Assembly (NCBI GenBank): GCA_964035575.1
Contig: OZ037837.1
Location: 558,001-622,000 of the forward strand
Length of the DNA: 64,000 nucleotides
Direction: 5' to 3'
From: Rhynchopus sp. YZ270_cl-10
Lineage: Eukaryota
Under the pieces are notes generated by a model, which did not search any database, was not told the DNA's origin, and worked only from the letters and a program-made list of their open reading frames with translations. Shown here one piece after another: positions 4,161 through 64,000 of the stretch. A program made the translations under genes and the position numbers. Every line of letters starts with the position of its first letter. Within the stretch, counting starts at the first letter, position 1.

Positions 4161-4449
4161 GTTCAGGGGGGTAACTCTGTTCTGTGGGGTATGGTGTGTG
4201 GGGAAGGCAGAGAAAACGGGAAAAAAGAGAACGGGGAGGGGGAGACACAGACGCGCAACTTTTCAGGAGGGTCTCTAGAGGATTTTGTAAAATGCTACGT
4301 GTTGACTAAAAAAGCAGTAGAGACCCTTTACTCCTTGGAGATACCCTGAAAGTGTCAAAACAATAGGCCCAGGACGAAATGCAACAATAACATCATTGAT
4401 AACAGGAGGGCGTTCAGGACAACAGCTAATGTGACCGCAATCGTGCACT

Positions 4450-5535
4450 TCATGACAGGTGTGAGATGTCAACAATCTCAACACCCGTGCCCCCTGCGTA
4501 TATCAGCACGTCAGTGCAGCTACTGATGGCGATACCGAAGTGGCACTCAACAACGTCACGGTGCAAGATCTTCTCAGATGTGGAGATGGACCAGAGACAC
4601 AACATTTTACCAGAAGAGTAAGCAGCAACAACGTCGTTCGACACAGCAACATCAGTCCACATGGTTTCTGAGACGTTTTCAAATATGCTTTCACCTGTTT
4701 CAATGTTCCATACACGCACACATTTGCCGCAACACGCTGCAATGAAACGCTGGTCTGGTGACAGTGCCAGATACGCAACATCAGAAGGGCATGTCATAAC
4801 ACGCACCTCGACCCCTGTCGTGTAGTCCCATACGGTGAGTAGGTTGCTGCTCTCCCCAAACATCGCCACCCTGTCGCCTGCCACAACCATAACGTAGCCT
4901 TCAACAATGTGGTCCCATTCATGCACAACAACGCCTGTTGCAATGTCCCACACCTGCAAACCCTTGCTGCCACACGACAACAGCTTTGTTCCACAAGGTG
5001 ACCATGCCGTGGTCTTCCTCTCATCACCTTCATCTCCAAAAGAGTGCTCCAGTGCACCTGTCCTCACTTCATGAACTTCAGCACACTCCATGTTCTGCTT
5101 GACACACGAGATCCACGCACTGCACGGTGAGAAGACTGGGGAATAATACACTTCTGCAGGGAAGCGGCTCAGAAGGTTATGTGTTTCTGTGTCGAAGATG
5201 GACACACCGTTATCGCGATCCATCACTGCAAGGTACCTGTCACACGGGGAGAGTGTGAGGAAGCAAGTCTCCTCCGTACCGTGTGGTATCACCCCAGGAG
5301 TGATGTTGGCTCCAGTGCAGTACAGCTCAACGGCACACCCCTCATCCATCACCGTATCGCAGATGCGCAAGTCGTCGTTCCCGATGTCGCCACCGCCTCT
5401 CATCCGCACACCAACATGCCGAGCACGTGGCACGCCAAGCTCCGCAACAAGCTTACCCTTCACCTGTGCAAGAGTGTCGCTCCCGTCCACTTCTATCACA
5501 CAGCTTGCAGACTCGAAGTGTCCTGTGATGTCCAT
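4450..5535 (-). CDS. UBL + WD40 protein, copy 3 (361 aa, most divergent propeller)
   Basis: Same UBL; first and last blades diverged. Confidence 0.85.
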   Translation of the reverse strand: MDITGHFESASCVIEVDGSDTLAQVKGKLVAELGVPRARHVGVRMRGGGDIGNDDLRICDTVMDEGCAVELYCTGANITPGVIPHGTEETCFLTLSPCDRYLAVMDRDNGVSIFDTETHNLLSRFPAEVYYSPVFSPCSAWISCVKQNMECAEVHEVRTGALEHSFGDEGDERKTTAWSPCGTKLLSCGSKGLQVWDIATGVVVHEWDHIVEGYVMVVAGDRVAMFGESSNLLTVWDYTTGVEVRVMTCPSDVAYLALSPDQRFIAACCGKCVRVWNIETGESIFENVSETMWTDVAVSNDVVAAYSSGKMLCLWSISTSEKILHRDVVECHFGIAISSCTDVLIYAGGTGVEIVDISHLS

Positions 5536-5896
5536 GTTCAGGGGGGTAACTCTGTTCTGTGAGGTATGGTGTGTGGTGTGGTGTGGAGGGTTGTGCAAGA
5601 ATGTCTTCAAGCACTGGGTTCTTCACGCGGTTGCCATTCATATGAAAACAATGGAGGTGGAGTGGTGGGTTCTGGTAGACATCATTGGTGGGAAGGTCCA
5701 CATTGTTGCACACGAAGATGAAAGCTTCGTGCGTGGGGTAGGAGTACGGGTGTGCCTTAAGGGGTGCTCTCGGATGCGGTGGTGAACAATTGTGTGATTT
5801 CGCTATTTTTTATTTTACAATCTGTTTTTTAACTCTCGCAGGCAAGGTGCAGGAAAAGGGAAGCAAAAGTAGATTGGCAGCGTTGTGGAAGTGGGT

Positions 5897-7000
5897 TCAA
5901 GCCAGTTGTGTGGTGTCGACAATATTCACACCGTCATCCCCTCCGTACATCACCACACCACCACAGCTGCTGATTGCAATACCGTAAGAATCGTGGCTCT
6001 CGCTTGCACGACACGGCAGTTCCCTCTGTTCCCCTGTTGAGATGGACCACACGCACAAAGACCCCGTATCGGGCGCGTAGACAGCAACAATGTCGTTCGA
6101 CACAGCCACGTCAGTCCAGAAGTTTTCCGAGTCATCTTCAAATACACGTTCACCTGTTTCAATGTCCCAGACGAGCACACAGTCTTCGTCACACCCTGCA
6201 ATGAAACGCTGGTTAGGTGTCAGTGCTATGTAACAGATAGAAGAAATGAACGTAACTACAAGCACCTCGACCCCAGTCGTGTAGTCCCATACGGTGAGTA
6301 GGTTGCTGCTCTTCCCAAGCATCGCCACCCTGTCGCCTGCCACAAGCATGACGTCCTCGCACTCCACAATGTGCTCCCATTCATGCACAACAACGCCTGT
6401 TGCAATGTCCCACACCTGCAAACCCTTGCTGCAGCACGACAACAGCTTTGTTCCACAAGGTGACCATGCCGTGGTCCTCCTCTCATCACCATCTGGAAGT
6501 TCTTCTCCAAAGGAGTGCTCCAGTGCACCTGTCCTCACGTCGTGAACTTCAGCACACTGCGTGTCCTCGTTGACACATGAGATCCACGCACTGCACGGTG
6601 AGAAGGCTGGAGAATAATACACTTTTGCAGGGAAGCGGCTCAGAAGTTCATGTGTTGCTGTGTCGAAGATGGACAGACGCTCACGCCACATCACTGCAAG
6701 GTACCTGTCACACGGGGAGAGTGTGAGCGAGCGTGTGTTATCCACACGTGGTATCACCCCAGGAGTGATGTTGGCTCCAGTGCAGTACAGCTCAACGGCA
6801 CATCCCTCATCCATCTCCGTGTCGCAGATGCGCAAGTCGCCGTTCCCGATGTCGCCACCGCCTCTCATCCGCACACCAACATGCCGATCACGTGGCACGC
6901 CAAGCTCCGCAACAAGCTTCCCCTTCACCTGTGCAAGAGTGTCGCTCCCGTCCACTTCTATCACACAGCTTGCAGACTCGAAGTGTCCTGTGATGTCCAT
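5897..7000 (-). CDS. UBL + WD40 protein, copy 4 (367 aa)
   Basis: Intact paralog; mosaic of copy-1-like and copy-3-like segments. Confidence 0.85.
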   Translation of the reverse strand: MDITGHFESASCVIEVDGSDTLAQVKGKLVAELGVPRDRHVGVRMRGGGDIGNGDLRICDTEMDEGCAVELYCTGANITPGVIPRVDNTRSLTLSPCDRYLAVMWRERLSIFDTATHELLSRFPAKVYYSPAFSPCSAWISCVNEDTQCAEVHDVRTGALEHSFGEELPDGDERRTTAWSPCGTKLLSCCSKGLQVWDIATGVVVHEWEHIVECEDVMLVAGDRVAMLGKSSNLLTVWDYTTGVEVLVVTFISSICYIALTPNQRFIAGCDEDCVLVWDIETGERVFEDDSENFWTDVAVSNDIVAVYAPDTGSLCVWSISTGEQRELPCRASESHDSYGIAISSCGGVVMYGGDDGVNIVDTTQLA

Positions 7001-7463
7001 GTTCAGGGGGGTGACTCTGTTCTGTGGGGTATGGTGTATGATGTGCTGTGTAGGGTTGTGCAAGGTGATATCGCTATTCTCTATTTTACACCTGTTTTTT
7101 CAATGCAACTAGCTCTCGCAGGCAAGAGGCAAGAACATGAGGTGGTGCACACACGCACAGTACACCACAGCGCACAACAGTAGTGGTGAGGATGTTGTCA
7201 AGCAGGTACCTTCTCGGAACACAAGCAGGAGGAAAGGCTACGTGGTGCCACACACGGCATGCACACCTGGGGTTAGAGGTACTAGTTGTGCTTCACGTGC
7301 GCAAAAGACACAACGAAACGGTGCGGTCTCCATTGCCAACACACCTACAACAAGAGACATGTGCTATCTATCTCTGCGTATCTTCCCGCTTGGAGTTACA
7401 CAGGCAAGGTGCAGGAAAAGGGAAGCAAAAGTAGATGGGCACCTTTCCGTTGTGGAAGTGGGT

Positions 7464-8533
7464 TCAAGACAGTTGTGTGGTGTCGACAATATTCACACCA
7501 CGAATACTTGCTCTCCCTTGCACTACAAGGCAGTTGCCTCTGTTCACCTGTTGAGATGGACCACACGCACAAAGACTGCGTACCGGGCGCGTAGACAGCA
7601 ACAATGTCGTTCGACACAGCCATGTCAATCCAGTAGTATTCCGTGTCATCTTCAAATACACGTTCACCTGTTTCAATGTCCCAGACGAGCACACAGTCTG
7701 GGCCACACGCTGCAATGAAACGCTGGTTAGGTGTCAGTGCTATATAACATACGGAAGAAGAGGACGAAAGTACAAGCACCTCGACCCCTGTCGTGTAGTC
7801 CCATACGGTGAGTAGGTTGCTGTTCATCCCAAACATCGCCACCCTGTCGCCTGCCACAAGCATAACGCACTCGCACTGCACAATGTGGTCCCATTCATGC
7901 ACAACAACGCCTGTTGCAATGTCCCACACCTGCAAACCCTTGCTGCAGCACGATAACAGCTTTGTTCCACAAGGTGACCATGCCGTGGTCCTCCTCTCAT
8001 CACTACCAGGTAGTTCTTCTGCAAAGCGCGCTCCAGTGTACAGAGCGCTCCAGTGCACCTGTCCTCACGTCATGAACTTCAGCACACAGTGTGTCCTCGT
8101 TGACACACGAAATCCACGCACTGCACGGTGAGAAGGCTGGGCTGCTAGTATGGTGGCAAGGGAAGTGGCACTGACGCTCATGTGTTGCTGTGTCGAAGAT
8201 GGACAGACCCTCCTCACGCCACATCACTGCAAGGTACCTGTCACACGGGGAGAGTGTGAGCAACAATGTGTTATCCACACGTGGTATCACCCCAGGAGTG
8301 ATGTTGGCTCCAGTGCAGTATAGCTCAACGGCACACCCCTCATCCATCACCGTGTCGCAGATGCGCAAGTCGTCGTTCCCGATGTCGCCACCGCCTCTCA
8401 TCCGCACACCAACATGCCGAGCACGTGGCACACCAAGCTCCGCAACAAGCTTCCCCTTCACCTGTGCAAGAGTGTCGCTCCCGTCCACTTCTATCACACA
8501 GCTTGCAGACTCGAAGTGTCCTGTGATGTCCAT
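7464..8533 (-). pseudogene. UBL + WD40 copy 5, frameshifted
   Basis: Homology is split over ORFs 8003..8608, 7396..8058 and 7464..7715; a short duplication (gcgctccagtg twice, ~8028-8055) shifts the frame and a deletion near 7500 removes part of the last blade. Confidence 0.8.
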
Positions 8534-9217
8534 GTTCAGGGGGGTGACTCTGTTCTGTGAGGTATGGTGTGTGGTGTGGTGTGGAGGGTTGCGCAAGAAT
8601 GTCTTCAAGCACTGGGTTCTTCACGCGGTTGCCATTCATATGAAAACAATGGAGGTGGAGTGGTGGGTTCTGGTGGACATCATTGGTGGGAAGGTCCACA
8701 TTGTTGCACACGAAGACGAAAGCTTCGTGCGTGGGGTAGGAGTACGGGTGTGCCTTAAGGGGTGCTCTCGGATGCGGTGGTGAACAATTGTGTGATTTCG
8801 CTATTTTTTATTTTACAATCTGTTTTTTTAACTGCGCCTAGCTCTCGCAGGCAAGAGGCAAGAACATGAGGTGGTGCACACACGCACAGTACACCACAGC
8901 GCACAACAGTAGTGGTGAGGATGTTGTCAAGCAGGTACCTTCTCGGAACACAAGCAGGAGGAAAGGCTACGTGGTGCCACACACGGCATGCACACCTGGG
9001 GTTAGAGGTACTCACGCCTTCCCACGCCATTGACGGTAGTTGTGATTCACGTGTGTAAAAGACACAGCGGGACGTTGCGGTCTCCATTGCCAACACACCC
9101 ACAACGAGAGACATGTGCTATCTATCTTTGCGTATCTTCCCGCTTGGAGTTACACAGGCAAGGTGCAGGAAAAGGGAAGCAAAAGTAGATGGGCACCTTT
9201 CCGTTGTGGAAGTGGGT

Positions 9218-10312
9218 TCAAGCCAGTTGTATGGTGTCGACAATATGCACACCGTCATCCCCTCCGTACATCACCACACCACCACAACTGCTGATTGCAA
9301 CACCGTAAGAAGAATGGCTCTCGCTTGCACGAAACGGCAGTTCCCACTGTTCCCCTGTTGAGATGGACCACACGCACAAAGACCCCGTACCGGGCGCGTA
9401 GACAGCAACAATGTCGTCGGACACAGCCATGTCCGTCCAGTAGTATTCCGTGTGATCTTCAAATACACGTTCACCTGTTTCAATATCCCAGACAAATATG
9501 CAGTCTGGGTCGCACGTTGCAATGAAACGCTGGTTTGGTGCCCCTGCAATAATACATATGGAAGAAGAGGACGAAAGTACAAGCACCTCGACCCCTGTCG
9601 TGTAGTCCCATACGGTGAGTAGGTTGCTGTCATGCCCAAACATCGCCACCCTGTCGCCTGCCACAAGCATAACGTCTTTGCACTCCACAATGTGGTCCCA
9701 TTCATGCACAACAACGCCTGTTGTAATGTCCCACACCTGCAAACCCTTGCTGCCACACGACAACAGCTTTGTTCCACAAGGTGACCATGCCGTGGTACGC
9801 GTCCCATCACCCTGAGTTCGAAAAGAGTGCAGTGCACCTGTCCTCACGTCATGAACTTCAGCACACTGCGTGTCCTCGTTGACACATGAGATCCACGCAC
9901 TGCACGGTGAGAAGGCTGGGTTACTAGTATGGTGGCAAGGGAAGTTGCACTGACGCTCATGTGTTGCTGTGTCGAAGATGGACAGACCCTCCTCACGCCA
10001 CATCACTGCAAGGTACCTGTCACACGGGGAGAGTGTGAGCGAGAATGTATCATCCACACGTGGTATCACCCCAGGAGTGATGTTGGCTCCAGTGCAGTAC
10101 AGCTCAACGGCACATCCCTCATCCATCTCCGTGTCGCAGATGCGCAAGTCGTCGTTCCCGATGTCGCCACCGCCTCTCATCCGCACACCAACATGCCGAG
10201 CACGTGGCACGCCAAGCTCCGCAACAAGCTTCCCCTTCACCTGTGCAAGAGTGTCGCTCCCGTCCACTTCTATCACACAGCTTGCAGACTCGAAGTGTCC
10301 TGTGATGTCCAT
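9218..10312 (-). CDS. UBL + WD40 protein, copy 6 (364 aa)
   Basis: Intact paralog. Confidence 0.85.
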   Translation of the reverse strand: MDITGHFESASCVIEVDGSDTLAQVKGKLVAELGVPRARHVGVRMRGGGDIGNDDLRICDTEMDEGCAVELYCTGANITPGVIPRVDDTFSLTLSPCDRYLAVMWREEGLSIFDTATHERQCNFPCHHTSNPAFSPCSAWISCVNEDTQCAEVHDVRTGALHSFRTQGDGTRTTAWSPCGTKLLSCGSKGLQVWDITTGVVVHEWDHIVECKDVMLVAGDRVAMFGHDSNLLTVWDYTTGVEVLVLSSSSSICIIAGAPNQRFIATCDPDCIFVWDIETGERVFEDHTEYYWTDMAVSDDIVAVYAPGTGSLCVWSISTGEQWELPFRASESHSSYGVAISSCGGVVMYGGDDGVHIVDTIQLA

Positions 10313-10746
10313 GTTCAGGGGGGTGACTCTGTTCTGTGGGGTATGGTGTGTGGTGTTGATATCAGTTTCCTGAAGGTAATTCGTGCTAATCAAATCAAGG
10401 CCGCACTTACAAAGTTTAGCCACAAACTACGCCCCCCTGCCTACTATCAGGTATCGCCAAGCCTGTGTTTATGGCGGTATGACGATGTTTTGTCTGAGAT
10501 TCCAACTTTCGGAAAATCAGTTTTCTGAAAACGGGGGTGGGAAAAAATCGCGAATAGAAAACAAAAATGGGGGCGATATTGAAAAAGTTGGAACGCTTCC
10601 TCACCCAGACAACACTCTTGGGTGTACATTCTTTTTTTCTATCCCCCAAAACGACAGAAATGGAAAAAAAAAAGAGAAAAACCCCTTTGCATGAAGTACA
10701 GAAATGAGGTGAGTGAACAATAGAATTTGTTCGAATAATAAAAAAA

Positions 10747-50753: not shown

Positions 50754-53408
50754 TTAACCCATTCCCATAATAACATCGCGATAATATTTTGCCGATCCCA
50801 AAGGTAGTTGAAGACCCTCCGAAGGCAACTCAGTACACATGTCTCCAACGAAGTCCTCAATATCAGCCCCTGCATCAATAAGCACCTCCACCACATCTGC
50901 ATGTTTTTCCTGCACAGCAACGTGCAACGCAGTGCAGTTCGTGCTCTCTTGGTGATTCAGGTCCACCTCCGGCAAGGCCACAAGATAGCGCACAGTATCG
51001 GTGTGTCCATGATGCGCTGCAAAGATAAGACACGTGTTTCTTTCGTCATCTGTGGCACGTACATCCGCACCTGCTTTGATCAACATCTTCACAGTTGTGA
51101 GTTCTCCAGAAATGCTAGCCACGAGCAAAGGCGAGCGTCCTTCATCATTCTTTGTCTCAATATCAGCTCCTGCATCAATAAGCACCTCCACCACATCTGC
51201 ATGTTTTTCCTGCACAGCAACGTGCAACGCAGTGCAGTTCGTGCTCTCTTGGTGATTCAGGTCCACCTCCGGCAAAGACACAAGATAGCGCACAGTATCG
51301 GTGTGTCCAAAATACGCTGCAAGGATAAGACACGTGTTTCTTTCGTCGTCTGTGGCACGTACATCCGCACCTGCTTTGACCAACTTCGTCACAGTTGTGA
51401 GTGCTCCTAAAAGGCTAGGCATGTGCAAAGGCGAGCCTCCTTCATCATTCTTTGTCTCAATGTCTGCCCCTGCATCAATGAGCACCTCCACCACATCTGC
51501 ATGTTTTACCTGCACAGCAACGTGCAACGCAGTGCAGTTCGTGCTGTCTTGGTGATTCAGGTCCACCTCCGGCAAGGCCACAAGATAGCGCACAGTATCG
51601 GTGTGTCCATGATGCGCTGCAAAGATAAGACACGTGTCTCTTTCGGCGTCTGTGGCACGCACATCCGCACCTGCTTTGATCAACATCTTCACAGTTGTGA
51701 GTTCTCCAGAAATGCTAGCCACGAGCAGAGGCGAGCGTCCTTCATCATTCTTTGTCTCAATATCAGCTCCTGCATCAATAAGCACCTCCACCACGTCTGC
51801 ATGTTTTTCCTGCACAGCAAAGTGCAACGCAGTGCAGTTCGTGCTCTCTTGGTGATTCAGGTCCACCTCCGGCAAGGTCACAAGATAGCGCACAGTATCG
51901 GTGTGTCCAAAATACGCTGCAAGGATAAGACACGTGTTTCTTTCGTCGTCTGTGGCACGTACATCCGCACCTGCTTTGACCAACATCTTCACAGTTGTGA
52001 GTTCTCCAGAAATGCTAGCCACGAGCAGAGGCGAGCGTACTTCATCATTTTTTGTCTCGATGTCTGCCCCTGCATTAATGAGCACCTCCACCACATCTGC
52101 ATGTTTTACCTGCACAGCAACGTGCAACGCAGTGCAGTTCGTGCTCTCTTGGTGATTCAGGTCCACCTCCGGCAAAGACACAAGATAGCGCACAGTATCG
52201 GTGTGTCCATGATGCGCTGCAAAGATAAGACACGTGTTTCTTTTGGCGTCTGTGGCACGTACATCCGCACCTGCTTCGACCAACATCTTCACAGTTGTGA
52301 GTTCTCCAGAAATGCTAGCCACGAGCAGAGGCGAGCGTACTTCATCATTCTTTGTCTCAATGTCAGCCCCTGCATCAATGAGCACCTCCACCACGTCTGC
52401 ATGCTTTTCCTGCACAGCAACGTGCAACGCAGTGCAGTTCGTGCTCTCTTGGTGATTCAGGTCCACCTCCGGCAAGCCCACAAGATAGCGCACAGTATCG
52501 GTGTGTCCAAAATCCGCTGCAAAGATAAGACACGTGTTTCTTTTGGCGTCTGTGGCACGTACATCCGCACCTGCTTTGACCAACTTCGTCACAGTTGTGA
52601 GTGCTCCTAAAAGGCTAGCCATGTGCAAAGGCGAGCCTCCTTCATCATTCTTTGTCTCAATGTCAGCCCCTGCATCAATAAGCACCTCCACCACGTCTGC
52701 ATGTTTTTCCTGCACAGCAAAGTGCAACGCAGTGCAGTTGTTGCTGTCTTGGTGATTCAGGTCCACCTCCGGCAAGCCCACAAGATAGCGCACAGTATCG
52801 ATGTGTCCAAAATACGCTGCAAAGATAAGACACGTGGCTCTTTTGGCGTCTGTGGCACGTACATCCGCACCTGCTTTGACCAACATCTTCACAGTTGTGA
52901 GTGCTCCTGAACGGCTAGCCAATTGCAAAGGCGAACGCCCGTTGTCGTTCTTTGTCTCAGTGTCTGCCCCTGCACCGATGAATACCTGACACACTGCAGG
53001 GTCCTCCCACATGGCTGGACATAGGTGCGACGTCTGACCTGCACTGTCCTCGGAGCCGTGTGGGACAAACGCAACGTTACTGCAGACTGACTTCCAATGC
53101 TGCAAGAGGACCTCCGTGCACGCAGCGTGGTCTGCGTGGACACACTCACTCAGCAAGATGCCAAACCCCAACTGCGTTGTCTCAACATACGGAAGAAGCA
53201 ATGTCAGGCATTCATCGTGGTTCCCTCTGCATGCCTCGTGCACAGCATCAAAGGTAACTGTTTTGCTGTCTGGGGAGAGCTTCTCGAGTGCTGCCCGCAC
53301 GGCAGCGGTGTCGCCGTTCTTGACAGCCTCCAGCAGGTCCTTGTCAGAAAGCTTTCTTCTTTTTGGTGGGTTCTGGTTTGGTGTGCTGTCTGCGTGCCGC
53401 TTCGACAT
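50754..53408 (-). CDS. Ankyrin-repeat protein with seven 100-aa (three-ANK, 300 bp) super-repeats and an N-terminal NLS-like motif, 884 aa
   Basis: SPLxxAS / TCLIxAAxxGH / TALHxAV triplets with an exact 300 nt period; PPKRRK. Confidence 0.92.
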   Translation of the reverse strand: MSKRHADSTPNQNPPKRRKLSDKDLLEAVKNGDTAAVRAALEKLSPDSKTVTFDAVHEACRGNHDECLTLLLPYVETTQLGFGILLSECVHADHAACTEVLLQHWKSVCSNVAFVPHGSEDSAGQTSHLCPAMWEDPAVCQVFIGAGADTETKNDNGRSPLQLASRSGALTTVKMLVKAGADVRATDAKRATCLIFAAYFGHIDTVRYLVGLPEVDLNHQDSNNCTALHFAVQEKHADVVEVLIDAGADIETKNDEGGSPLHMASLLGALTTVTKLVKAGADVRATDAKRNTCLIFAADFGHTDTVRYLVGLPEVDLNHQESTNCTALHVAVQEKHADVVEVLIDAGADIETKNDEVRSPLLVASISGELTTVKMLVEAGADVRATDAKRNTCLIFAAHHGHTDTVRYLVSLPEVDLNHQESTNCTALHVAVQVKHADVVEVLINAGADIETKNDEVRSPLLVASISGELTTVKMLVKAGADVRATDDERNTCLILAAYFGHTDTVRYLVTLPEVDLNHQESTNCTALHFAVQEKHADVVEVLIDAGADIETKNDEGRSPLLVASISGELTTVKMLIKAGADVRATDAERDTCLIFAAHHGHTDTVRYLVALPEVDLNHQDSTNCTALHVAVQVKHADVVEVLIDAGADIETKNDEGGSPLHMPSLLGALTTVTKLVKAGADVRATDDERNTCLILAAYFGHTDTVRYLVSLPEVDLNHQESTNCTALHVAVQEKHADVVEVLIDAGADIETKNDEGRSPLLVASISGELTTVKMLIKAGADVRATDDERNTCLIFAAHHGHTDTVRYLVALPEVDLNHQESTNCTALHVAVQEKHADVVEVLIDAGADIEDFVGDMCTELPSEGLQLPLGSAKYYRDVIMGMG

Positions 53409-55100
53409 GGTGCTGTGTGTATTGCTGTGAGGTTGATGATGCTTTGTGTAAAATGCGAGGTTGCGGGGATGGAGGGAAGGATCTACAAAAGAAGCTCACC
53501 CAGGGTGCAACACACCCAAAGCTATGTACAGTACTCCTACCAGGGCCTGTCCTTGTGTAACGTTCTGTGTCTAATAATGCACTAACACACAGGGTGTGCT
53601 CAAAAGACTCAAGACGAAGGATCTTCACCCTTCAATAAACTGCGCACACTTTGTTAATTTCACATTATTTCTTGCTCTCTAAGTCTCGAATACTACCAGC
53701 ATCACCTTCTGCTACCAGAACAACATGTGGCATCCGTTCTAACACCTCGCACCCAAACACCCGGAGGCATGGCACCAAACCTGAAAGCACTTGTCGCCCT
53801 TGGCAGTACAGTGTTACCCTGCCCCTTTCGCACCACGTTGTTCACAAAAGCTGTCGAACAGACATAGCACCTCCATCTCTCCGAAGGTGAGCTTGCGACC
53901 CGATCATCATGGAAGGGCTCTCTGCTGTGCGAAAGGGTTCGTTGCGGTCATGCGACACCCAGCCGCAGATGGCTGAGATGCCGCCTTTCCCCGAGAGTTT
54001 GGCGGTGTTCTGTCCCCTAAAGAACACCGCCCTCAGGAGGCACATCAACATACAGCTCCCTCCCGACTGCCCCCCTCTCTGTGTCACGACGTGGGTTGTG
54101 GGAAAAGCGGAACATTCTGCAAACCAAATATAAAGAAACATAAGCAAAATGATGGCTATCCTGACAATTTTCCCGGTGGGCGAGGGAGAAGGTGGATATG
54201 GGATGAAAAAAGGGGTGCGTTTTTAAACTTTTTTTTTTCACTCAGATAGCCACGTGCCGCTGAAGGCGATCGCATGCTAATACAGAACGTACGTATGTAC
54301 GGGTTGCTGGTTGGCTAAGGGATAAAAAATGTCGCCATTCTTAAAGGCATGTATGTGGCTCGCAGGAACTAAAGGGTTAAAAATTCAAAAAAAAAGTGCT
54401 CAGACAATCACAGAAGTGTCCAAACCCCCTCTTTTGTAGATAAGTGGCAACGATGAAACAAAGAAAAAACAGAAAAAAGAAAACTCTTTATAAACAGTGA
54501 AAAACATAAAGAGGGCCCGTACAGCAAAAAAGTTACGGAAAAACCAGTTCGTAGCACACTACTGGCAGAGCACTCATCCTACAGGGAGGGAGTTTTATTT
54601 TTCCTTCCTTCAAAACTTCACACACAACGCTTTTTGGTTTTTGGAAGACACACAAGGTGCCGGGTTCTATGATAAGCACGGAACCACCCTGCACCTGTTT
54701 GTCATATATATTGTTTCCCGTGCAATACATGGGGAAACGTTTCGCGTCGAAACTAGGGAAACAATGACAACACAGGTAACAGGGGTTTTTAAATTTGAGA
54801 CGTTTGCATAAACTACTGATATATGACCAAAGACAAGAGAAACGTAAGAAGAGCAGCACGCCGGTTGGCTGTGTACTGACAGAGCTAAAAGAGGCATGTA
54901 TTCATGCTCCCAAGGGAGGTATCAGAGAAACGTCATAAGAAACACCACATCGAGGTGGCAAAAATATCGTAAGACAAAGACACATGACCGCATTCAGTGC
55001 CGACCACAAGATCACTTCCCAGGACGGGCCAGATCAACATTAAATCTTACGTCAAGCACTACAGGTACAAAATCATGTGTCTACAGGCAGCAGAAGAGAT

Positions 55101-56605
55101 ACCCATGCGAGAAGCCACAAGAACTCTAACCCTGGAATCACCCGGGATCATCAAGAACTCAGCTCAAGCAGGGATACCCAGTATACACTCATCCGCATGC
55201 ATGTAACAGGAAAGTAGGACAGAGCAAATAGACACAAAAAACATCCGAGCGTAAATACACAGTAATGCAGGCGACCACAGAGCTCTACCCCTGGAGAGAC
55301 AAGCCCATATGGAGCTCAGTCTCCTATCACCCGGGATCAACAAGCCTACAAGTGGCATCGAGAACTCTAGCCCTGGAAAGACGAGCCCATACGGCACTCC
55401 GTCTCTTTATCACCCGGGATCAACAAGATCTCTACGCAAGCAGAACCAACCCATGCGAGAAGCCACAAGAACTCTACCCCTGGAATCACCCGGGATCCTC
55501 AAGAACTCTGCTCAAGCAGGGTTACCCAGTATACACTCATCCGCATTCATGTAACAGGAAAGAAAAGAGATAAGCAAGTAGACACAAAACACATCCGAGC
55601 GTAAATACACAGTAATGCAGGCGACCACAGAGCTCTACCCCTGGAGAGACAAGCCCATATGGAGCTCAGTCTCCTATCACCCGGGATCAACAAGCCTACA
55701 AGTGGCATCGAGAACTCTAGCCCTGGAAAGACGAGCCCATACGGCACTCCGTCTCTTTATCACCCGGGATCAACAAGATCTCTACGCAAGCAGAACCAAC
55801 CCATGCGAGAAGCCACAAGAACTCTACCCCTGGAATCACCCGGGATCCTCAAGAACTCTGCTCAAGCAGGGTTACCCAGTATACACTCATCCGCATTCAT
55901 GTAACAGGAAAGTAAGACAGAGCAAATGGACACAAGAAACATCCGAGCATAAATACACAGTAATGCAGGCGACCACAGAGCTCTACCCCTGGAGAGACAA
56001 GCCCATATGGAGCTCAGTCTCCTATCACCCGGGATCAACAAGCCTACAAGTGGCATCGAGAACTCTAGCCCTGGAAAGACGAGCCCATACGGCACTCAGT
56101 CTCTTTATCACCCGGGATCAACAAGATCTCTACGCAAGCAGAACCAACCCATGCGAGAAGCCACAAGAACTCTAGCCCTGGAATCACCCGGGATCCTCAA
56201 GAACTCTGCTCAGGCAGGGTTACCCAGTATACACTCGTCCGAATACATGTACCAGGAAAGAAAAGAGATACGCGAATAGACACAAAAAAACATCCGAGCA
56301 TAAATACACAGTAATGCAGGCGACCACAGAGCTCTACCCCTGGAGAGACAAGCCCATATGGAGCTCAGTCTCCTATCACCCGGGATCAACAAGCCTACAA
56401 GTGGCATCGAGAACTCTAGCCCTGGAAAGACGAGCCCCTACGGCACTCCGTCTCTTTATCACCCGGGATCAACAAGATCTCTACGCAAGCAGAACCAACC
56501 CATGCGAGAAGCCACAAGAACTCTAACCCTGGAATCACCCGGGATCATCAAGAACTCAGCTCAAGCAGGGTTACCCAGTATTAGCTCATCCGCTTTCGTG
56601 CAACA
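55101..56605. repeat. ~4.3 tandem units of 348-351 bp inside the retroelement, each with three related sub-motifs
   Basis: acccatgcgagaagccacaagaactct at 55101, 55449, 55799, 56147 and 56498. Confidence 0.92.
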
Positions 56606-57380
56606 GGAAGAAACAAAACAGTGTGCCAGTAGCAACAGAGAGAAACACCATGTAAAACATGCACGCAAGGGAAAACAGACAATGCGCGAGCAGCACAGAG
56701 AAAGAGCTAAACAAGCAATCAAGCCAATAAGGCACAACTTTATGAAGAAAAAGCAGGGAGTGGAGGGAGGGAAAGCTTTTTGATAAAAGTTAATGAAACA
56801 CAAAAACCAAGCGCGTGTGGAAGAAAAAAGAAAAGAAAATATTTTTTCTGATTCAAAGTGGTGTTTACGTTTTGGGTACGGGGCGGAGAATAAAATCTGT
56901 TCGATAAAAGAAACGCAAGCTTTTTTGTTTTATCTTGTTCATTTTATTTTTCCTTCCTTCAAAACTTCACACACAACGCTTTTTGGTTTTTGGAAGACAC
57001 ACAAGGTGCCGGGTTCTATGATAAGCACGGAACCACCCTGCACCTGTTTGTCATATATATTGTTTCCCGTGCAATACATGGGGAAACGTTTCGCGTCGAA
57101 ACTAGGGACATAAACAACTACCCCCCCCTCATTTTCACCCATCTCCGTAGCCCCAGTGACCACAGGCGGGACACCAGCATAGGCAAGGGATGGACGATAC
57201 GCGCGACAGACGCAAAAAGAAGAAAACAACAACAACAACAAGAAAAAACACCCGAGAGATGAGAGACCGCCAGGGCTATCTCACCTGCCACAGAGTGCCG
57301 TCAATAAAATCAAAAAACACAAGTAAAAGCAATAAAAACGCAGACATCACAACATCAAAAACTCACACGCAAGCACCGGC

Positions 57381-60350
57381 TCATCGCGTGTCCAGGTCCG
57401 CCACCATCAGCTTCGTCCCGACCAGGTGCGTGGTGAACCTTCTCCGAAGACTTATGCCTGACATCAGTCTTGCCATCAGCTGGTCCTCCTGAGGGTGGGG
57501 CGACGAACCTTTGCGGTGGCGTGACTCCGCAGTGGAATTGTCATGAAAACAATCCAATCCATACCCTCGCGGGGCAACAGAGTCAGCCACAGCCATGGCG
57601 ATGAGGGCGGTCACCAGCTCCCTCCTGCGAATAGGCGTGGGTGGGCGGCACGTCAGCAGGAGAGCATCCCACGTCCAGTCCACACGTGCCTTCACCTTCC
57701 GTGCCACAGGGTCCAGCAAGACAACAGACGCACCCACGTCGCTGGCATCAGACCATATGTGCCACGCAGGCGCATCTGCCAGAACACGCCGGGGACGACA
57801 CGCCGCCAGCCACTTCTCAGCACGGCGAAACTCCGCTAGCAAGGAGCCCGTCAAGGTAACCGACCTGTCCCACTCTTTCGCCGTAGTGCAGTGGCGGCTT
57901 AGCTGCCGAGAGAGGCGGCACATCAGGGTGAACCCAGCGATCGGCGTGCGCATGACCAAGTGCGCCCATCTGTAGCACCCAATGTGGTGGGCCACCGCTC
58001 TGCAGGTGAGAGTCCGGGGCGTAGGCGACGCCAGCAGCTTACTCCTCCAGTCCTCGTCCAGCGCCAACGTCTTCGCCGACATGTCCAGCTGGACACCAAT
58101 GAACACCGCGCAGTGTGTGGGGTCCACCCGCTTCTCCTCCCTCACCACGCAGTTCGCGTCACGCAACGTCGCATCGAAAGCCTGTCGTCGCTGCTCCACC
58201 TCCGCCAGTGTCTGACCTGCAATGCAGACATCGTCATATATCGCAAGGGACACTGAAAGGAGGTTAGCTCGCTGTAGCATCCCCAGTGTGGCCAGCTGCG
58301 CGACAGAGGGAGCCCTGCTGATCCCCGGGACCGCCACCCGGAAGCAGAAATACCCTTCTGTGGTCCTGATCCCCAGCTTGGTCTGCAGATCGGGGCCGAC
58401 AGGGATCTGGAAAAAATATCCCAGAAAGTCGACACAGCAGAAGAAGTTGTGCTGGAGCACGAAACGCTCGAGGTCGGAGAGTTGTGGGGTGAGCGGAGGG
58501 AGCACCGGCTTTGACCTCTTGTCAAACTCCCTCCCATCGACCAGAAGGCGCGCCAGGCCGTTCTTCTTGCCAATCTTGAAGGTGGGGAGGGTGATGTGCG
58601 GCCTGCCCACAGCTACGCGCAGGATGCCCTTCTTCACCAAGCTGGCGAGGTCCGCACAGGTGAGCGAGGAGGAGGTCTGGCACTGTTTGCGGGTGGTCGT
58701 ATGCAGCATGGGCTCGTTCACATAGTCCCTCAGGAGCGTACGTTCCCACTCGTTCAGCCCTTCCTCCACTACAGATAGGTTCAGGCGGCTGTCCGGGAGC
58801 ACATCCAATGCCGCATCGCAACCCTTCGACGGACCACGGGCCACACCAACCGCATACACCGAGGCCGCACATTCCCCAATCATGCGCTCGTGCCTGCGGA
58901 GCGAGTCAGCCACATCGGAGCCCGAGCTCAGGTGCAGGAGGTGGCCTTCCGGATCTTCCACAAAACAAGTCTCACTGTCCTCCGACAGGTCGCAGCCCTG
59001 CCACGCCGCATCGATCTCCTGCGCCAGCACACGCACATGTGTCGCCACCACTGCCACAATGTCGTAGTCCCACTCAAGCAGAGGGTGGGACGTCTCCAAT
59101 GATCGCGCATACTCCGGACACCAGTCGGACACACGGTACCGTTCCGTCAGTCGGAGCGCCCCGACGCTCTCCAGCTCTGGGGTATCGGGCGGTGCAGCAT
59201 CGCCGATGTGCGCTCCAGGGACAGGAAGTCGGGAGTGATGCACCCCCAGAGGTATCGGCGGAGCGTGTCGACCTCCTTGTGGCGTGCCACCACCAGCATA
59301 TCCCCCCACGTGGCCCCCATCATCGCCAAGTGCTGCAAGGCCCCTCTCTTCCAGGAGTGGTCGCGATATTCGGGGAAGTGCAGAGAGGTCTCCCGTCCCA
59401 GGTTGCGGATGTCTGACACACTGAACGCCATCCCGCGTAGCTTCCACCGGCGGATGGCAGGGAACATATGCTCGGGGAGGGTGTATAGCAGCTCGGCTGG
59501 GTCCCCTCGTAGCCTGGCCTCCTTCACCGTCCACCACCTTATCGCAATGGTGCCCGTGCCCACCCTGCCTGCTTCTGGGAGCACGACGTCTGATGGGAGT
59601 ATAGCACGCAGGTCTGCCATGCGCAGCGCACCCGTCCACGCCAACGCCACGGCCGCACACAGAACACTGTTTCCCTCTCGCCAGAGACGCTTCCAAGTCT
59701 GCTGCATGCAGGTGTAGGGCAGGGGTGGCGCGTGAGTGGGGGTTTCCCGTCGTTCCAGGCGAGTGCGCACCAGCCCCTTGCGGGTCTCCCTCAGCACACT
59801 GTCCGGCACTTCCAGCACCCGAGCCAGCACGTTCACGTACCGCTCCAGCGCCGACGTCGTCATCGCCAGGGAGAAAGGTCGCCCACGTTGCCCCGGCGCT
59901 CGCACCAGCAGCCTCTCCTTCTCCTCCGCGCTCATCCGATCCGACAACATTGCGGCGGCGAACGCCCGTAGGCGCAAAGGGTGCGGCATCTGCCCGAGTC
60001 CGCAGGCGCGCGTGTACATTTCGTACTTCCGCACGATGCTGCGCGTCTGCGCCTTCGTCGCGGCACACGTCGCTCGCGCCTCCAGCCCCGCCACCGAGTC
60101 CTCCCATCGTGGTCACTGCTTCTGGTGTTCGAACGGGCAAGGATGCTTGAGGCACGCAAGCCCCTTCAGGAACCGGTGGCAGGCCTTCCCCTCCGGCTTC
60201 TTCGGGGCAGTCTTCGGTGTGGGCTTCGGGGTCTGGGCCGGCCTCGGGGTCGCTCTGCCTGTCGATTTTCTGGGAAAGTGCGTGGTGTTGTGCGTGGCCC
60301 CATTCGACTTTCCCGTAGGCCGAAAATCCACCTCGAACCTCCTGCGGGCG
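57381..60350 (-). CDS. Pol: reverse transcriptase + RNase H; open frame overlaps the whole YR ORF, true start uncertain
   Basis: VDFLGYFFQI, PGISRAPSVAQ, IYDDVCI, FIGVQLD (RT); WSDASDVGA, RRELVTA, HDNSTA, MVADLDTR (RNase H). Frame is open from the TGA at 60351-60353; the first ATG is at ~60108. Confidence 0.88.
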   Translation of the reverse strand, partial: RPQEVRGGFSAYGKVEWGHAQHHALSQKIDRQSDPEAGPDPEAHTEDCPEEAGGEGLPPVPEGACVPQASLPVRTPEAVTTMGGLGGGAGGASDVCRDEGADAQHRAEVRNVHARLRTRADAAPFAPTGVRRRNVVGSDERGGEGEAAGASAGATWATFLPGDDDVGAGAVRERAGSGAGSAGQCAEGDPQGAGAHSPGTTGNPHSRATPALHLHAADLEASLARGKQCSVCGRGVGVDGCAAHGRPACYTPIRRRAPRSRQGGHGHHCDKVVDGEGGQATRGPSRAAIHPPRAYVPCHPPVEATRDGVQCVRHPQPGTGDLSALPRISRPLLEERGLAALGDDGGHVGGYAGGGTPQGGRHAPPIPLGVHHSRLPVPGAHIGDAAPPDTPELESVGALRLTERYRVSDWCPEYARSLETSHPLLEWDYDIVAVVATHVRVLAQEIDAAWQGCDLSEDSETCFVEDPEGHLLHLSSGSDVADSLRRHERMIGECAASVYAVGVARGPSKGCDAALDVLPDSRLNLSVVEEGLNEWERTLLRDYVNEPMLHTTTRKQCQTSSSLTCADLASLVKKGILRVAVGRPHITLPTFKIGKKNGLARLLVDGREFDKRSKPVLPPLTPQLSDLERFVLQHNFFCCVDFLGYFFQIPVGPDLQTKLGIRTTEGYFCFRVAVPGISRAPSVAQLATLGMLQRANLLSVSLAIYDDVCIAGQTLAEVEQRRQAFDATLRDANCVVREEKRVDPTHCAVFIGVQLDMSAKTLALDEDWRSKLLASPTPRTLTCRAVAHHIGCYRWAHLVMRTPIAGFTLMCRLSRQLSRHCTTAKEWDRSVTLTGSLLAEFRRAEKWLAACRPRRVLADAPAWHIWSDASDVGASVVLLDPVARKVKARVDWTWDALLLTCRPPTPIRRRELVTALIAMAVADSVAPRGYGLDCFHDNSTAESRHRKGSSPHPQEDQLMARLMSGISLRRRFTTHLVGTKLMVADLDTR
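59147..60112 (-). CDS. Tyrosine recombinase, in frame with gag after a single TGA
   Basis: GALRMADL (R), TVKE (K), HSWKRGA (H..R), ARHK..TLRRYL (H, Y). Confidence 0.9.
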   Translation of the reverse strand, partial: PRWEDSVAGLEARATCAATKAQTRSIVRKYEMYTRACGLGQMPHPLRLRAFAAAMLSDRMSAEEKERLLVRAPGQRGRPFSLAMTTSALERYVNVLARVLEVPDSVLRETRKGLVRTRLERRETPTHAPPLPYTCMQQTWKRLWREGNSVLCAAVALAWTGALRMADLRAILPSDVVLPEAGRVGTGTIAIRWWTVKEARLRGDPAELLYTLPEHMFPAIRRWKLRGMAFSVSDIRNLGRETSLHFPEYRDHSWKRGALQHLAMMGATWGDMLVVARHKEVDTLRRYLWGCITPDFLSLERTSAMLHRPIPQSWRASGRSD

Positions 60351-61504
60351 TCACGCAGGGCGCGAGGAAGATTATTCGACTCGAGCTGCCTGCGCATGTG
60401 TTCGGCCGCCCCCGGGGACCTCGTGGTGTAGGTGGCACGGAGGGCCTCCAGTTCAGCCATGTGCCCCCTCATGCGGCGGAGCCATTCGGTCAGCGCTGCG
60501 GGGTTCTGGTTCCGGAAGATCCAAAAGTTTCGGATGGTCAGAAAAGTCCTGTCGCGTTTCTCCTGAAGCCCGTGGTTGCCCAGAAACGCGTACATGTCCG
60601 TCCTAGCACGGAGTACCCGCTCAAACTCCGCAAACCAGGACTCGTCAAACGTCTCAGGCCACCTGGACACTTCAGTGTAGCACCGAATGTCTGCACCTTC
60701 CTCCTCCTGGTCGTCGTCGGCAGAAGACTGCGTCACAGGGCCCTTCGGTGCGGAGAGCGGCGCGTAATCCGATAAGACCGTCATGGCTTCGGCTTGCTTG
60801 TCGCAGTTGGCGAGCAAACGAGACACCTCTTCAGGCATGCGGTCAAAGAAAAAGTCCCCGTGCTCCTCCGTGTACGCCACGTACAAGGCGTCCGCAGCCG
60901 CCGTTGTCAGCAATGGGAAAATGTCACACGGCGGGTCTCTGCGTCTCTTCCCAGCCAGCTTCGGCGTCGGCGGGACATCAGGCGTCTTGCCCTGCGCGGG
61001 GAGCTGCGGAGGAAGACGCGCCAGCACGGCCGCCGTCACGGCCTCCACCATCTCGGACAACGTCGCAGGGCTTTCGGGGGACGCACGCGGAGACGGTTTC
61101 GCAGCACGCGTCGCAGCCTTCGTCGCCGGCTTCACCACAGGTGGCTTTGTCGTCTGCGTATTCGGTTCCTCCGTCAGGTCGTCGTCGTCGTCAACATCTG
61201 CACCGTTACCCGGCACGTCATCAACGGGGTCCCCTTCATTATCATCCCCATAGTCCCACGCCTCGTACCCGCTCTGATCCCACCCCCCGCGACCCTCCAT
61301 TCCTTCATCCTGGAGGTCGTAACAATATTGTTGGTGGTCGGCGGGCGGGTCTCGCGCCGCCAAAGATGACATTGCCCGATCCAGCTTCTTCTCCATCCGC
61401 GCCTCGCGCTCCTCCAGGTCCGCCCTCTGATCCTCCGCCTGCCTCTTCATGTCTCGCAGAGCCGCAAGGAGCTGCGCCTTCGTGCGGGTGTCCGTGGCAG
61501 GCAT
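60113..61504 (-). CDS. Gag-like ORF1 with an N-terminal coiled coil and a C-terminal CCCH zinc finger (463 aa)
   Basis: MPATDTRTK start just inside repeat A1; CHRFLKGLACLKHPCPFEH. Confidence 0.82.
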   Translation of the reverse strand: MPATDTRTKAQLLAALRDMKRQAEDQRADLEEREARMEKKLDRAMSSLAARDPPADHQQYCYDLQDEGMEGRGGWDQSGYEAWDYGDDNEGDPVDDVPGNGADVDDDDDLTEEPNTQTTKPPVVKPATKAATRAAKPSPRASPESPATLSEMVEAVTAAVLARLPPQLPAQGKTPDVPPTPKLAGKRRRDPPCDIFPLLTTAAADALYVAYTEEHGDFFFDRMPEEVSRLLANCDKQAEAMTVLSDYAPLSAPKGPVTQSSADDDQEEEGADIRCYTEVSRWPETFDESWFAEFERVLRARTDMYAFLGNHGLQEKRDRTFLTIRNFWIFRNQNPAALTEWLRRMRGHMAELEALRATYTTRSPGAAEHMRRQLESNNLPRALRDARRRFEVDFRPTGKSNGATHNTTHFPRKSTGRATPRPAQTPKPTPKTAPKKPEGKACHRFLKGLACLKHPCPFEHQKQ

Positions 61505-61717
61505 AATGAGAGAGAAAGAAGAGAAGAAAAAGAGGGAAAAGAACGGTAAAGCTTTTTGATAAAAGTTAATGAAACACAAAAACCAAGCGCGTGTGGAAGA
61601 AAAAAGAAAAGAAAATATTTTTTCTGATTCAAAGTGGTGTTTACGTTTTGGGTACGGGGCGGAGAATAAAATCTGTTCGATAAAAGAAACGCAAGCTTTT
61701 TTGTTTTATCTTGTTCA

Positions 61718-62130
61718 GAAAAAAGTGATTTGGCAACCCACTTAGCAGCAGATTTGATCAAATCAAGGGGGGCAGTGGGGACCTCAATCCGTCGTCTTTT
61801 GGGAGAAGGATCCGTAGAGCAGGGGACAGTGACAGACGAAGACGTAGATGTCGACGCACTAATAGACACTATTACCGGACCTAGCAGATCCATCTCGTCA
61901 CGTTTACGCTTGGAAGGCGCGCGTGCCAGTGCACGAGTGAAATGAGGGGAGTCCGAACGACGCGTAGTAGCAACGGGGGGACGGGGGTCAGGGGACATCG
62001 AGCGAGTGGTATCAGTGGTGTTTTTAATCAAAACATCGTCAAACCAAGTGACCTCATCTCGACTTGTTCTAGTTAACAATCTAGAGGATGTAGGTGTTGC
62101 CGGAGATGTAGGTGACAAAATGGGGGGCAT
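61718..62130 (-). pseudogene. S/T/P-rich ORF with basic NLS-like motifs, interrupted by the YR element
   Basis: MPPILSPTS...KRKR...PKRRR...KSLFS; joining 61718 to 54592 continues SLPVG*. Confidence 0.4.
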
Positions 62131-62366
62131 GGTAGGGGGAGACAATGGTGAATCCGAGGGTGATGTGTACACACTACGTGGCGTGACAGAAGCATTGTAT
62201 TGTTTTCGGGGGTGGGGGAAAAACATAAAAAGGAAAAGTAGGGTGCGGTTTCAATTTTGTCCTAAAAATACCCTTTTGTACTGTTGTGTTTGTGAGTCTC
62301 TGGTCGGGTGTTAAGGAAGCTGTACACAAGTATGGCGGAACTTAAGGAGAATGTTCCGGCATTGTT

Positions 62367-64000
62367 CTAGCGCTCAGTGTCTGCCCCAGCATCAATGAGC
62401 ACCTGCACCACGTCTGCATGTTTTTCCTGCACAGCAAAGTGCAACGCAGTGTAATTACCGCAGTCTTGCTGATTCAGGTCCACCTCCGGCAAAGACACAA
62501 GATAGCGCACAGTATCGGTGTGTCCAAAATATGTTGCAAGGGTAAGACACGTGACTCTTTTGGCGTCTGTGGCACGTACATCCGCACCTGCTTCGACCAA
62601 CATCTTCATAGTTGTGAGTTCTCCAGAAATGCTAGCCACGTGCAAAGGCGAGCGTCCTTCATCATTCTTTGTCTCAATGTCAGCCCCTGCATCAATGAGC
62701 ACCTCCACCACGTCTGCATGTTTTCTCTTCACAGCAATGTGCAACGCAGTGCAATTCGTACTCTCTTGGTGATTCAGGTCCACCTCCGGCAAACACACAA
62801 GATAGCGCACAGTATCGGTGTGTCCAAAATACGCTGCAAAGAGAAGACATGTCTCTCTTTCTGCGTCTGTGGCACGTACATCCGCACCTGCTTTGACCAA
62901 CATCTTCACAGTTGTGAGTTCTCCAGAAATGCTAGCCACGTGCAGAGGCGAGCGTCCTTCATCATTCTTTGTCTCAATGTCTGCCCCTGCATCAATGAGC
63001 ACCTGCACCACGTCTGCATGTTTTTCTTCCACAGCAACGTGCAACGCAGTGTCGTTCTCGCAGTCTTGGTGGTCCAGGTCCACCTCCGGCAAAGACACAA
63101 GATAGCGCACAGTATCGGTGCGTCCAACATGCGCTGCAAGGATAAGACACGTGGCTCTTCCGTCGTCTGTGGCACGTACATCCGCACCTGCTTCGACCAA
63201 CTTCGTCATGGCTGTGAGTGCTCCAGACATGCTACCCACGAACAGAGGCGAGCGTCCTACATGACTCTTTGTCTCAATGTCTGCCCCTGCATCAATGAGC
63301 ACCTGCACCACGTCTGCATATTCTCTTTCCACAGCAACGTGCAACGCAGTGTATTTACTGCTGTCTTGGTGGTCCAGGTCCACCTCCGGCAAGCCAGCAA
63401 GATAGCGCACAGTATCGGTGTGTCCAAAATCCGCTGCAAAGATAAGACACGTGACTCTTTTGGCGTCTGTGGCACGTACATCCGCACCTGCTTCGACCAA
63501 CATCTTTACAGTTGTGAGTGCTCCTGAACGGCTAGCCAATTGCAAAGGCGAACACCCTTTGTTTCTGTTCTTTGTCTCGATGTCTGCCCCTGCACCGATG
63601 AACACTTGACACACTGCAGGGTCCTCCCACATGGCTGGACATAGGTACAACGTCTGACCTGCACTGTCTTCGGAGTGCCCGTGTGGGACAAACGTGACGT
63701 TGCTGCAGACTGACTTCCAATGCTGCAAGAGGACCTCCGTGCACGCAGTGTGGTCTGCGTGGACACACTCACTCAGCAAGATCCCAAACCCCATCTGCGT
63801 TGTCTCAACATACGGAAGAAGCAGTGTCAGGCATTCATCGTGGTTCCCTCTGCATGCCTCGTGCACAGCATCAAAGACAACTGTTTTGCTGCCTGGGGAG
63901 AGCTTCTCGAGTGCTGCCCGCACGGCAGCGGTGTTGCCGTTCCTGACAGCCTTCAACAGGACGTCCTTGTCAGAAATATTTCTTCCTTTTGGTGGGTTCT
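62367..64000 (-). CDS. Ankyrin super-repeat protein, paralog of 50754..53408; start lies just beyond the window; four 300 bp units
   Basis: N-domain nearly identical to the paralog; ends abruptly at AGADTER*. Confidence 0.88.
   Translation of the reverse strand, partial: NPPKGRNISDKDVLLKAVRNGNTAAVRAALEKLSPGSKTVVFDAVHEACRGNHDECLTLLLPYVETTQMGFGILLSECVHADHTACTEVLLQHWKSVCSNVTFVPHGHSEDSAGQTLYLCPAMWEDPAVCQVFIGAGADIETKNRNKGCSPLQLASRSGALTTVKMLVEAGADVRATDAKRVTCLIFAADFGHTDTVRYLAGLPEVDLDHQDSSKYTALHVAVEREYADVVQVLIDAGADIETKSHVGRSPLFVGSMSGALTAMTKLVEAGADVRATDDGRATCLILAAHVGRTDTVRYLVSLPEVDLDHQDCENDTALHVAVEEKHADVVQVLIDAGADIETKNDEGRSPLHVASISGELTTVKMLVKAGADVRATDAERETCLLFAAYFGHTDTVRYLVCLPEVDLNHQESTNCTALHIAVKRKHADVVEVLIDAGADIETKNDEGRSPLHVASISGELTTMKMLVEAGADVRATDAKRVTCLTLATYFGHTDTVRYLVSLPEVDLNQQDCGNYTALHFAVQEKHADVVQVLIDAGADTER

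Follow-up and report, generated by a model that had tools for sequence, protein, structure and literature searches.

A VIPER-like retrotransposon in Rhynchopus whose gag may branch, by frameshift and readthrough, into two overlapping enzyme genes

How do retrotransposons that carry a tyrosine recombinase (YR) express both this enzyme and their reverse transcriptase (RT) from open reading frames (ORFs) that overlap and often lack an ATG? The literature available to us, some of it as excerpts, does not address this question. It is raised by an element in the stretch of DNA studied here (the window), 64,000 nucleotides of Rhynchopus sp. YZ270_cl-10 (assembly GCA_964035575.1, contig OZ037837.1, positions 558,001 to 622,000). 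Judged by its sequence, the element is an intact VIPER-like YR retrotransposon on the minus strand, ordered 5' to 3' as repeat A1, gag, YR with an overlapping Pol frame, repeats B1 and A2, a 348-bp tandem array and repeat B2 (Table 1). Our answer, to which we give a probability of about one half, is that a single RNA would yield three proteins from the gag start codon through two recoding events. A sequence-only reading of the locus had proposed the same three products, Gag, Gag-YR and Gag-Pol; of its two parts we find the frameshift well supported by inference and the readthrough at about even odds.

In this scheme, most ribosomes would stop at the UGA that ends gag and release Gag (463 aa). 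Some, paused by a hairpin 8 nt downstream, would slip by -1 at G GAU UUU into the overprinted frame and continue to RT and RNase H (RH), giving a Gag-Pol of about 1,374 aa that combines 394 Gag residues with 980 Pol-frame residues, including a low-complexity linker of 391 aa, and that would be without the CCCH motif of Gag. Of the ribosomes that do not slip, some would pass the UGA and make Gag-YR (785 aa). Frameshifting or readthrough is used by retroviruses, between gag and pol, and by plant viruses. The signals proposed here are of the same types, one of them the shift site of pea enation mosaic umbravirus (PEMV); what differs from the viral systems is that a single gag ORF would lead both ways, to two enzymes encoded on the same DNA.

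The observation that carries this scheme is the state of the Pol frame upstream of Pol. This frame lies at -1 to gag, opens after a TGA at 60353-60351 and stays open to 57381 (989 codons). Over the 400 codons that span the end of gag and the whole YR it contains no stop, compared with 19 in the preceding 384 gag codons. The expected number over the same 400 codons is 6.2 under permutation of synonymous codons (P0=0.0003), 6.7 under codon shuffling (P0=0.00065) and 13.0 with the codon usage of the non-overlapped part (0 of 20,000 trials stop-free); the long opening first noticed in the sequence is confirmed and is beyond chance. The YR part taken alone is also open beyond expectation when YR's own codon usage is imposed (P0=0.009). 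Among single-base differences between copies that alter the overlap, 7 of 8 can be silent in YR where 34-39% are expected (P 0.003-0.007; one two-base change was left out of the count), so the overlap seems to be kept open as a linker, with the sequence constraint on YR. The YR protein is under purifying selection. The amino acids of the linker differ between copies of the element, its hydrophobic fraction is 0.16 versus 0.32 in the Pol core, and it is likely disordered.

The opening also extends into gag beyond any place at which Pol could start on an ATG. The overlap has a single Pol-frame ATG, and the 79 gag codons that precede it are likewise stop-free (P0=0.008-0.009; 0.018 by run length), which argues that Pol is entered from inside gag. 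This bears on an explanation without a frameshift, in which termination-reinitiation or trans-splicing would let Pol start at that ATG, or at a GTG that overlaps the gag stop, and YR would be made by readthrough or from a separate start. The ATG does exist, 5 nt past the gag stop, at 60107-60105 and not quite at 60108 as first given; furthermore, in all 6 cases (the window and five VIPER families, by eye) an ATG or a GTG is the Pol-frame codon that overlaps the gag stop. Such a start would nevertheless leave unexplained the 79 further open codons, the heptamer and stem found where the open frame begins, and the canonical heptamers of relatives, and we regard it as distinctly unlikely.

Where the open frame begins, the sequence-only reading had pointed to two slippery-type heptamers, G GAT TTT and G GGA AAG. 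Both are indeed in gag phase just after the last Pol-frame stop, about 70 codons upstream of the gag stop. The first departs from the strict X XXY YYZ pattern but is the PEMV shift site, a known viral -1 site (PMC5009743, in the part available to us). Consider the class of gag-phase heptamers that re-pair perfectly in the A site (on AAA/UUU) and have no more than one mismatch in the P site: the closed 384 codons contain two members and the open part of gag another two, those of the open part lying within its first 40 nt. A hairpin with a perfect stem of 8 bp is predicted 8 nt downstream of G GAU UUU; the second heptamer (60314-60308) makes up its 5' arm and pairs with ACTTTCCC at 60279-60272. 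Of the 765 codon positions in gag and YR, 4 have a perfect stem of at least 8 bp so spaced; folding z-scores are -1.5 and -1.6 in one test and -2.7, -1.1 and 0.0 for windows of 50, 70 and 90 nt. We thus find the elements expected of a -1 frameshift, an in-phase slippery heptamer with structure 5-9 nt downstream, in a form where the heptamer is non-canonical and the structure z modest.

The second heptamer fits the slippery pattern only with Z=G, and a G in this position is poor in eukaryotes. As a shift site it is not favoured, with no stable structure after it (z +0.45, +0.08, +0.84) and its own letters paired in the hairpin; it is probably the 5' arm of the stimulatory stem instead. A canonical G GGA AAC inside YR (59675) is likely a chance occurrence: no stable structure follows it (z +0.3 to +1.8), and it lacks conservation in the alignment. 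Because the opening begins before any Pol ATG, because a known shift site with a suitably spaced stem stands at the start of the open stretch, and because canonical heptamers are found near the gag end of relatives, the -1 frameshift is well supported, and we infer that Pol is probably expressed in the retroviral manner.

Turning to the recombinase, we confirm that gag ends CAG TGA CCA CGA TGG on the minus strand (stop at 60115-60113) and that YR continues in the gag frame with no ATG ahead of its N-terminal helices. The first YR ATG, at 60019 (residue 32), falls within a helix predicted at residues 20-36 (block pLDDT 89-91). The segment upstream of this ATG is conserved in P0001, P0002, P0067 and P0074; no Met precedes it in the gene models P0001 and P0067, and one does in P0002 and P0074. 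The top fold matches of the YR model are XerA and Cre, aligned from residue 18-19; these are weak (Foldseek E 0.002-0.01, Z 8.7, root-mean-square deviation 13.9 over 237 residues). The catalytic-type residues R...H-x-x-R...H...Y are conserved in the alignment, consistent with a tyrosine recombinase fold, and a Pfam search found no YR family.

UGA followed by C is a leaky stop context. The gag TGA is covered by contigs of 4 of 4 runs with no alternative letter listed (run X6 has no coverage of the gag/YR junction), and 4 of 4 full-overlap Pol-frame proteins of the element's family start on an NTG that overlaps it, one of them from a contig whose gag is 96% identical to the window gag. The stop is therefore not an error private to the window copy, which does not imply deep conservation. 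Since the stop is kept, the first ATG would cut the YR fold and the spacers after the stop are open in relatives, expression of YR by UGA readthrough is plausible, at roughly even odds; that frameshift and readthrough both operate is an evenly balanced proposition or slightly less than that. The same evidence speaks to the idea that the stop is a disabling mutation in a once-fused ORF, spread by a non-autonomous copy. All copies examined are near-identical, and single-ORF TATE copies exist, as this idea would have it; however, the 96%-identical copy keeps the stop, YR is under purifying selection, stand-alone gags of Diplonema papillatum end near the same motif and the position of the stop recurs in five VIPER families. 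We consider the idea largely refuted and very improbable.

The published kinetoplastid relatives allow a comparison at the same junction. Here we used sequences from those supplements of PMC6681497 that were available to us, compared by eye; the VIPER set comprised T. cruzi (6 entries), three C. fasciculata and B. saltans, with L. pyrrhocoris, T. theileri and A. deanei left out. In 5 of 5 VIPER families gag ends in TGA and YR follows in frame, and the distance from stop to first YR ATG is 0, 7, 35, 51 and 121 stop-free codons, 214 in total (P about 0.0004 at the stop rate of the window). In 4 of the 5, A AAA AAC or G GGA AAC stands in phase 8-18 codons upstream of the stop; with a background of about 0.033 per 15 codons the computed chance is 6e-6, a value that makes the case look somewhat too strong because one site lies slightly outside the 15-codon window. 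The C. fasciculata copy on chr21 at 76128, with frames disturbed at homopolymer runs, was counted for the stop and as a miss for the heptamer. In T. cruzi and one C. fasciculata family a 6-nt spacer leads to a GC-rich stem of 10 or 8 bp. Heptamer and stop are kept in all six T. cruzi entries, and the table in the available part of PMC6681497 places T. cruzi ORF1 at 1-1341, ORF2 from 1342 and ORF3 from 1218.

The TATE elements show a variant of this arrangement. Both three-ORF TATE copies examined end gag with A AAA AAC TAA, a third being tabulated as a single ORF (PMC6681497, same part). In the L. braziliensis TATE (PMC6681497 MOESM11), T TTA AAC and A AAA AAC, judged by eye, immediately precede the YR domain in the phase of ORF2, ORF3 is at -1, and a second frameshift is likely there. 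All four full-length gag types of D. papillatum end K-N-x-stop at the protein level, which is compatible with the same heptamer. Several D. papillatum gene models (P0007, P0022, P0056, P0065, P0212 and others) join gag to YR and YR to Pol and drop the CCCH motif and the stop; such introns are likely false, spanning recoding junctions. We tentatively suggest, at somewhat less than even odds, that VIPER-like elements across Euglenozoa share a branching switch at the end of gag, in which a -1 frameshift tunnels through YR as a throw-away linker to RT while readthrough, or in TATE a first -1 shift, delivers YR.

Several observations weigh against the two-event scheme. The stem after the shift site is no longer significant in longer windows. 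Copies of the element's family are near-identical, with P0027 the same as the window copy (0 differences), and so are not independent evidence; the kinetoplastid comparison was made without computation. Because Pol is at -1 to both gag and YR, YR lies in the gag frame automatically, and the shared frame alone is no evidence of readthrough. We find no significant structure 3' of the window UGA (z +0.95, -0.06, -1.06), and TGA accounts for 5 of the 9 stops of host ORFs in the window. As for conservation across copies, which had been named as a check on the proposal, the stop is kept in the runs and close-kin proteins described above, but the C after it varies, all five kinetoplastid VIPER families having A instead, and P0002 has a Met at the position of the window's stop. 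In 6 of 15 tabulated VIPER copies, moreover, ORF2 starts inside ORF1, with YR outside the gag frame (PMC6681497, available part); the same table also contains off-by-one positions, and either the in-frame layout is not universal among VIPERs or those six copies are damaged.

Much of this evidence bears on an alternative that retains the -1 frameshift for Pol and dispenses with readthrough. YR would then have a start of its own, provided by internal spliced-leader trans-splicing, by ribosomes reinitiating past the gag stop or by a non-AUG codon. In all five kinetoplastid VIPER families, and likewise in P0002 and P0074, YR has an ATG ahead of the conserved first helix (in T. cruzi it follows the stop immediately), and this too counts against readthrough. 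D. papillatum mRNAs are trans-spliced (PMC10161547, in the part available), three AG sites lie at 60123-60117 just before the gag stop with 14 of 20 pyrimidines upstream, and no 3' stimulator was found after the UGA. In the window, by contrast, the first YR ATG would cut a predicted core helix, and there is no pyrimidine run of at least 10 near the YR start or the Pol-frame ATG, long tracts occurring only before gag, where the 36-nt tract at 61508..61543 is likely the trans-splicing signal for gag itself. With the relatives' post-stop spacers open for up to 121 codons as well, we judge a separate YR start unlikely.

A further point against tunnelling through YR is that Pol conservation among eight relatives begins at the YR stop. 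Pol might then be reached from that stop by stop-start coupling (CUG here, ATGA in relatives), in which case the open overlap would be either a relic or a side effect of codon bias. An ATG across the YR stop is found in D. papillatum, in at least one family: there the Pol-frame peptide P0050 and the YR tail, joined by an ATGA overlap, agree at all 11 of 11 positions (null 0 of 2,000). P0021 begins with Met at this place, in Rhynchopus humris a single assembled transcript carries both YR and Pol, the latter starting with Met, and few YR codons end in T (7.8%). Stop-start coupling may thus be used in part of the clade. For the window element we nevertheless think it improbable, as the overlap is significant even with YR's own codon usage and the equivalent place holds CTG. 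Moreover, 4 of the 6 Met starts come from ENA gene calls, in which GTG too is given as Met (P0016), and hence do not show an ATG, for which reason a conserved ATGA coupling, once a candidate explanation of these starts, was downgraded. Scans of viral contigs (78 pattern matches), metagenomes (223 and 163) and prokaryote genomes (207) gave no confirmed locus from diplonemid relatives.

We now consider what kind of element this is. It has three ORFs in the order gag-like, YR and RT/RH, the latter two overlapping, and split direct repeats with A1 at the 5' end and B1-A2-B2 at the 3' end, where the tandem array splits A2 from B2. These structural features place it in the VIPER-like group and do not settle membership in VIPER proper; on VIPER proper versus TATE or a sister clade, the evidence is likeness of motifs by eye and a profile match to P0203 (VIPER-type motif, probability 98%). 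DIRS-like features (inverted terminal repeats, an internal complementary region, a methyltransferase) are absent: the terminal repeats are direct and Pol ends after the RNase H-like motifs. The named close relatives are all diplonemid (D. papillatum, R. humris, Lacrimia lanifica), a pattern that by itself makes a diplonemid host likely. Neither the gag-like ORF nor a 267-codon stop-free Ser/Pro/Thr-rich frame that enters repeat A1 from upstream (61447-62250; a copy about 88% alike exists) matches a Pfam family over the cut-off, and an Rfam search of 54000-62400 gave 0 matches.

Table 1. Features of the element and of its putative recoding signals (window coordinates; an empty strand cell means none given).
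Feature	Position	Strand	Basis or detail
Split direct repeat A1 (element 5' end)	61545..61717	-	173 bp, 99.4% identity with A2
Pyrimidine tract, 36 nt, upstream of gag ATG	61508..61543	-	longest pyrimidine run within 57381-61717
gag-like ORF, 463 aa	60113..61504	-	ATG 61504 to TGA 60115-60113; 29-30% identity to D. papillatum gag proteins in alignment
Last Pol-frame stop (TGA) before open overlap	60351..60353	-	frame scan
Candidate -1 shift site G GAU UUU, gag phase	60323..60329	-	8 codons into open Pol frame; PEMV shift heptamer
Predicted stimulatory hairpin, 8 nt after shift site	60272..60314	-	arms 60314-60307 (contains G GGA AAG) and 60279-60272; -15.4 kcal/mol
Gag C-terminal CCCH-type motif	60125..60181	-	sequence; motif common to P0055, P0228, P0230, P0231
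gag stop TGA then C, candidate readthrough site	60113..60115	-	context CAG TGA CCA CGA TGG; unchanged in 4/4 runs
Only Pol-frame ATG inside overlap (rival start)	60105..60107	-	frame scan
Tyrosine recombinase (YR) ORF, gag frame, 321 codons	59147..60112	-	40-47% identity to D. papillatum proteins
Overprinted Pol-frame linker, 391 codons	59150..60323	-	50% Gly/Ala/Pro/Arg
Pol core, RT (YDD) and RNase H-like motifs	57381..59150	-	RVT_1 E=2e-5, below curated cut-off; 41-44% identity to 8 relatives
Split direct repeat B1	56942..57108	-	167 bp, 100% identity with B2
Split direct repeat A2	56769..56941	-	repeat comparison with A1
348-bp tandem array between A2 and B2	55101..56613		4.3 copies, 95% matches
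Split direct repeat B2 (element 3' end)	54593..54759	-	repeat comparison with B1

Contig depth in run X1 is 533-574 over the element and about 90-140 over neighbouring pieces, which suggests that the element is present as several near-identical copies, depth not being a copy number. The window copy departs from the main contigs of runs X1, X3 and X4 at four letters (58258, 58506, 59138 and 59876). Two further YR families, which over 59259-59525 are about 85% alike, are also present in the runs, one of them at a depth similar to that of the element. The A and B repeats reach contig depths tens to hundreds of times above the element body, which suggests a high-copy non-autonomous derivative. At 2269-2541 the window holds a degenerate solo copy in which repeats A and B are joined directly (85-91% identity); it resembles T. 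cruzi SIRE (A2+B2). The element is flanked by two paralogous ankyrin-type genes with 300-bp repeats (50754-53495 and 62367-63998), and tandem beta-propeller-like genes occupy positions 1-10,500, both families being named from their translations.

Comparison with known systems, as described in the parts of the sources available to us, places these features in context. With kinetoplastid VIPER (PMC6681497; VIPER-like group, order DIRS) the element shares the gag-YR-RT/RH order, a YR overlapped by ORF3, the A1...B1-A2-B2 repeats, the YR motif HSxKRGALxH and, in the five families compared, a TGA followed by an in-frame YR. It differs in belonging to a diplonemid-type clade, in its RT motif (YDD versus W/Y-I/L-DN), in its Gag motif (CCCH versus CCHC), in its shift site (G GAU UUU, 70 codons upstream of the gag stop, versus A AAA AAC or G GGA AAC near it) and in the 2-kb spacer between A2 and B2. 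TATE (Leishmania braziliensis, Crithidia mellificae) is likewise a YR element that has split repeats and, where gag ends, a slippery heptamer, with Pol at -1 to YR in L. braziliensis; unlike the window element, its gag ends A AAA AAC TAA, and the L. braziliensis ORF2 is in the -1 frame, much longer and carries further heptamers before the YR domain, resembling by eye two successive -1 shifts and not a shift plus readthrough. Long YR/pol overlaps also occur in half of 28 DIRS1-like elements (PMC3266345), for which the available part of that paper states no expression mechanism; those elements, unlike this one, have inverted repeats, an internal complementary region and a methyltransferase.

The YR/RT overlap itself is already described for VIPER and TATE (PMC6681497, PMC12278014), and the proposed recoding mechanism seems to extend across the family. 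In the literature examined we found no recoding proposal for VIPER-, TATE- or DIRS-type elements, though papers that are not openly accessible, such as Lorenzi 2006, may have raised one. Within the parts of these texts available to us, PMC6681497 does not mention readthrough, stop codon or translation, PMC12278014 does not mention frameshift, readthrough or slippery, PMC5009743 does not mention DIRS, VIPER or tyrosine recombinase, and PMC7192593, PMC8547959, PMC3783388 and PMC10161547 contain no recoding proposal for such elements.

This element and its published relatives offer a concrete and testable answer to the question of how two overlapped enzymes are expressed, in the form of named heptamers, stems and one stop codon. 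If the answer is right, gene models with introns across the gag/YR/Pol junction would probably be wrong, and the elements would supply natural frameshift and readthrough cassettes for euglenozoans. The long YR/pol overlap would be explained as a translational tunnel kept open by selection, and the nuclear RNAs of trypanosomatids and diplonemids would contain a programmed recoding that has not been described before.

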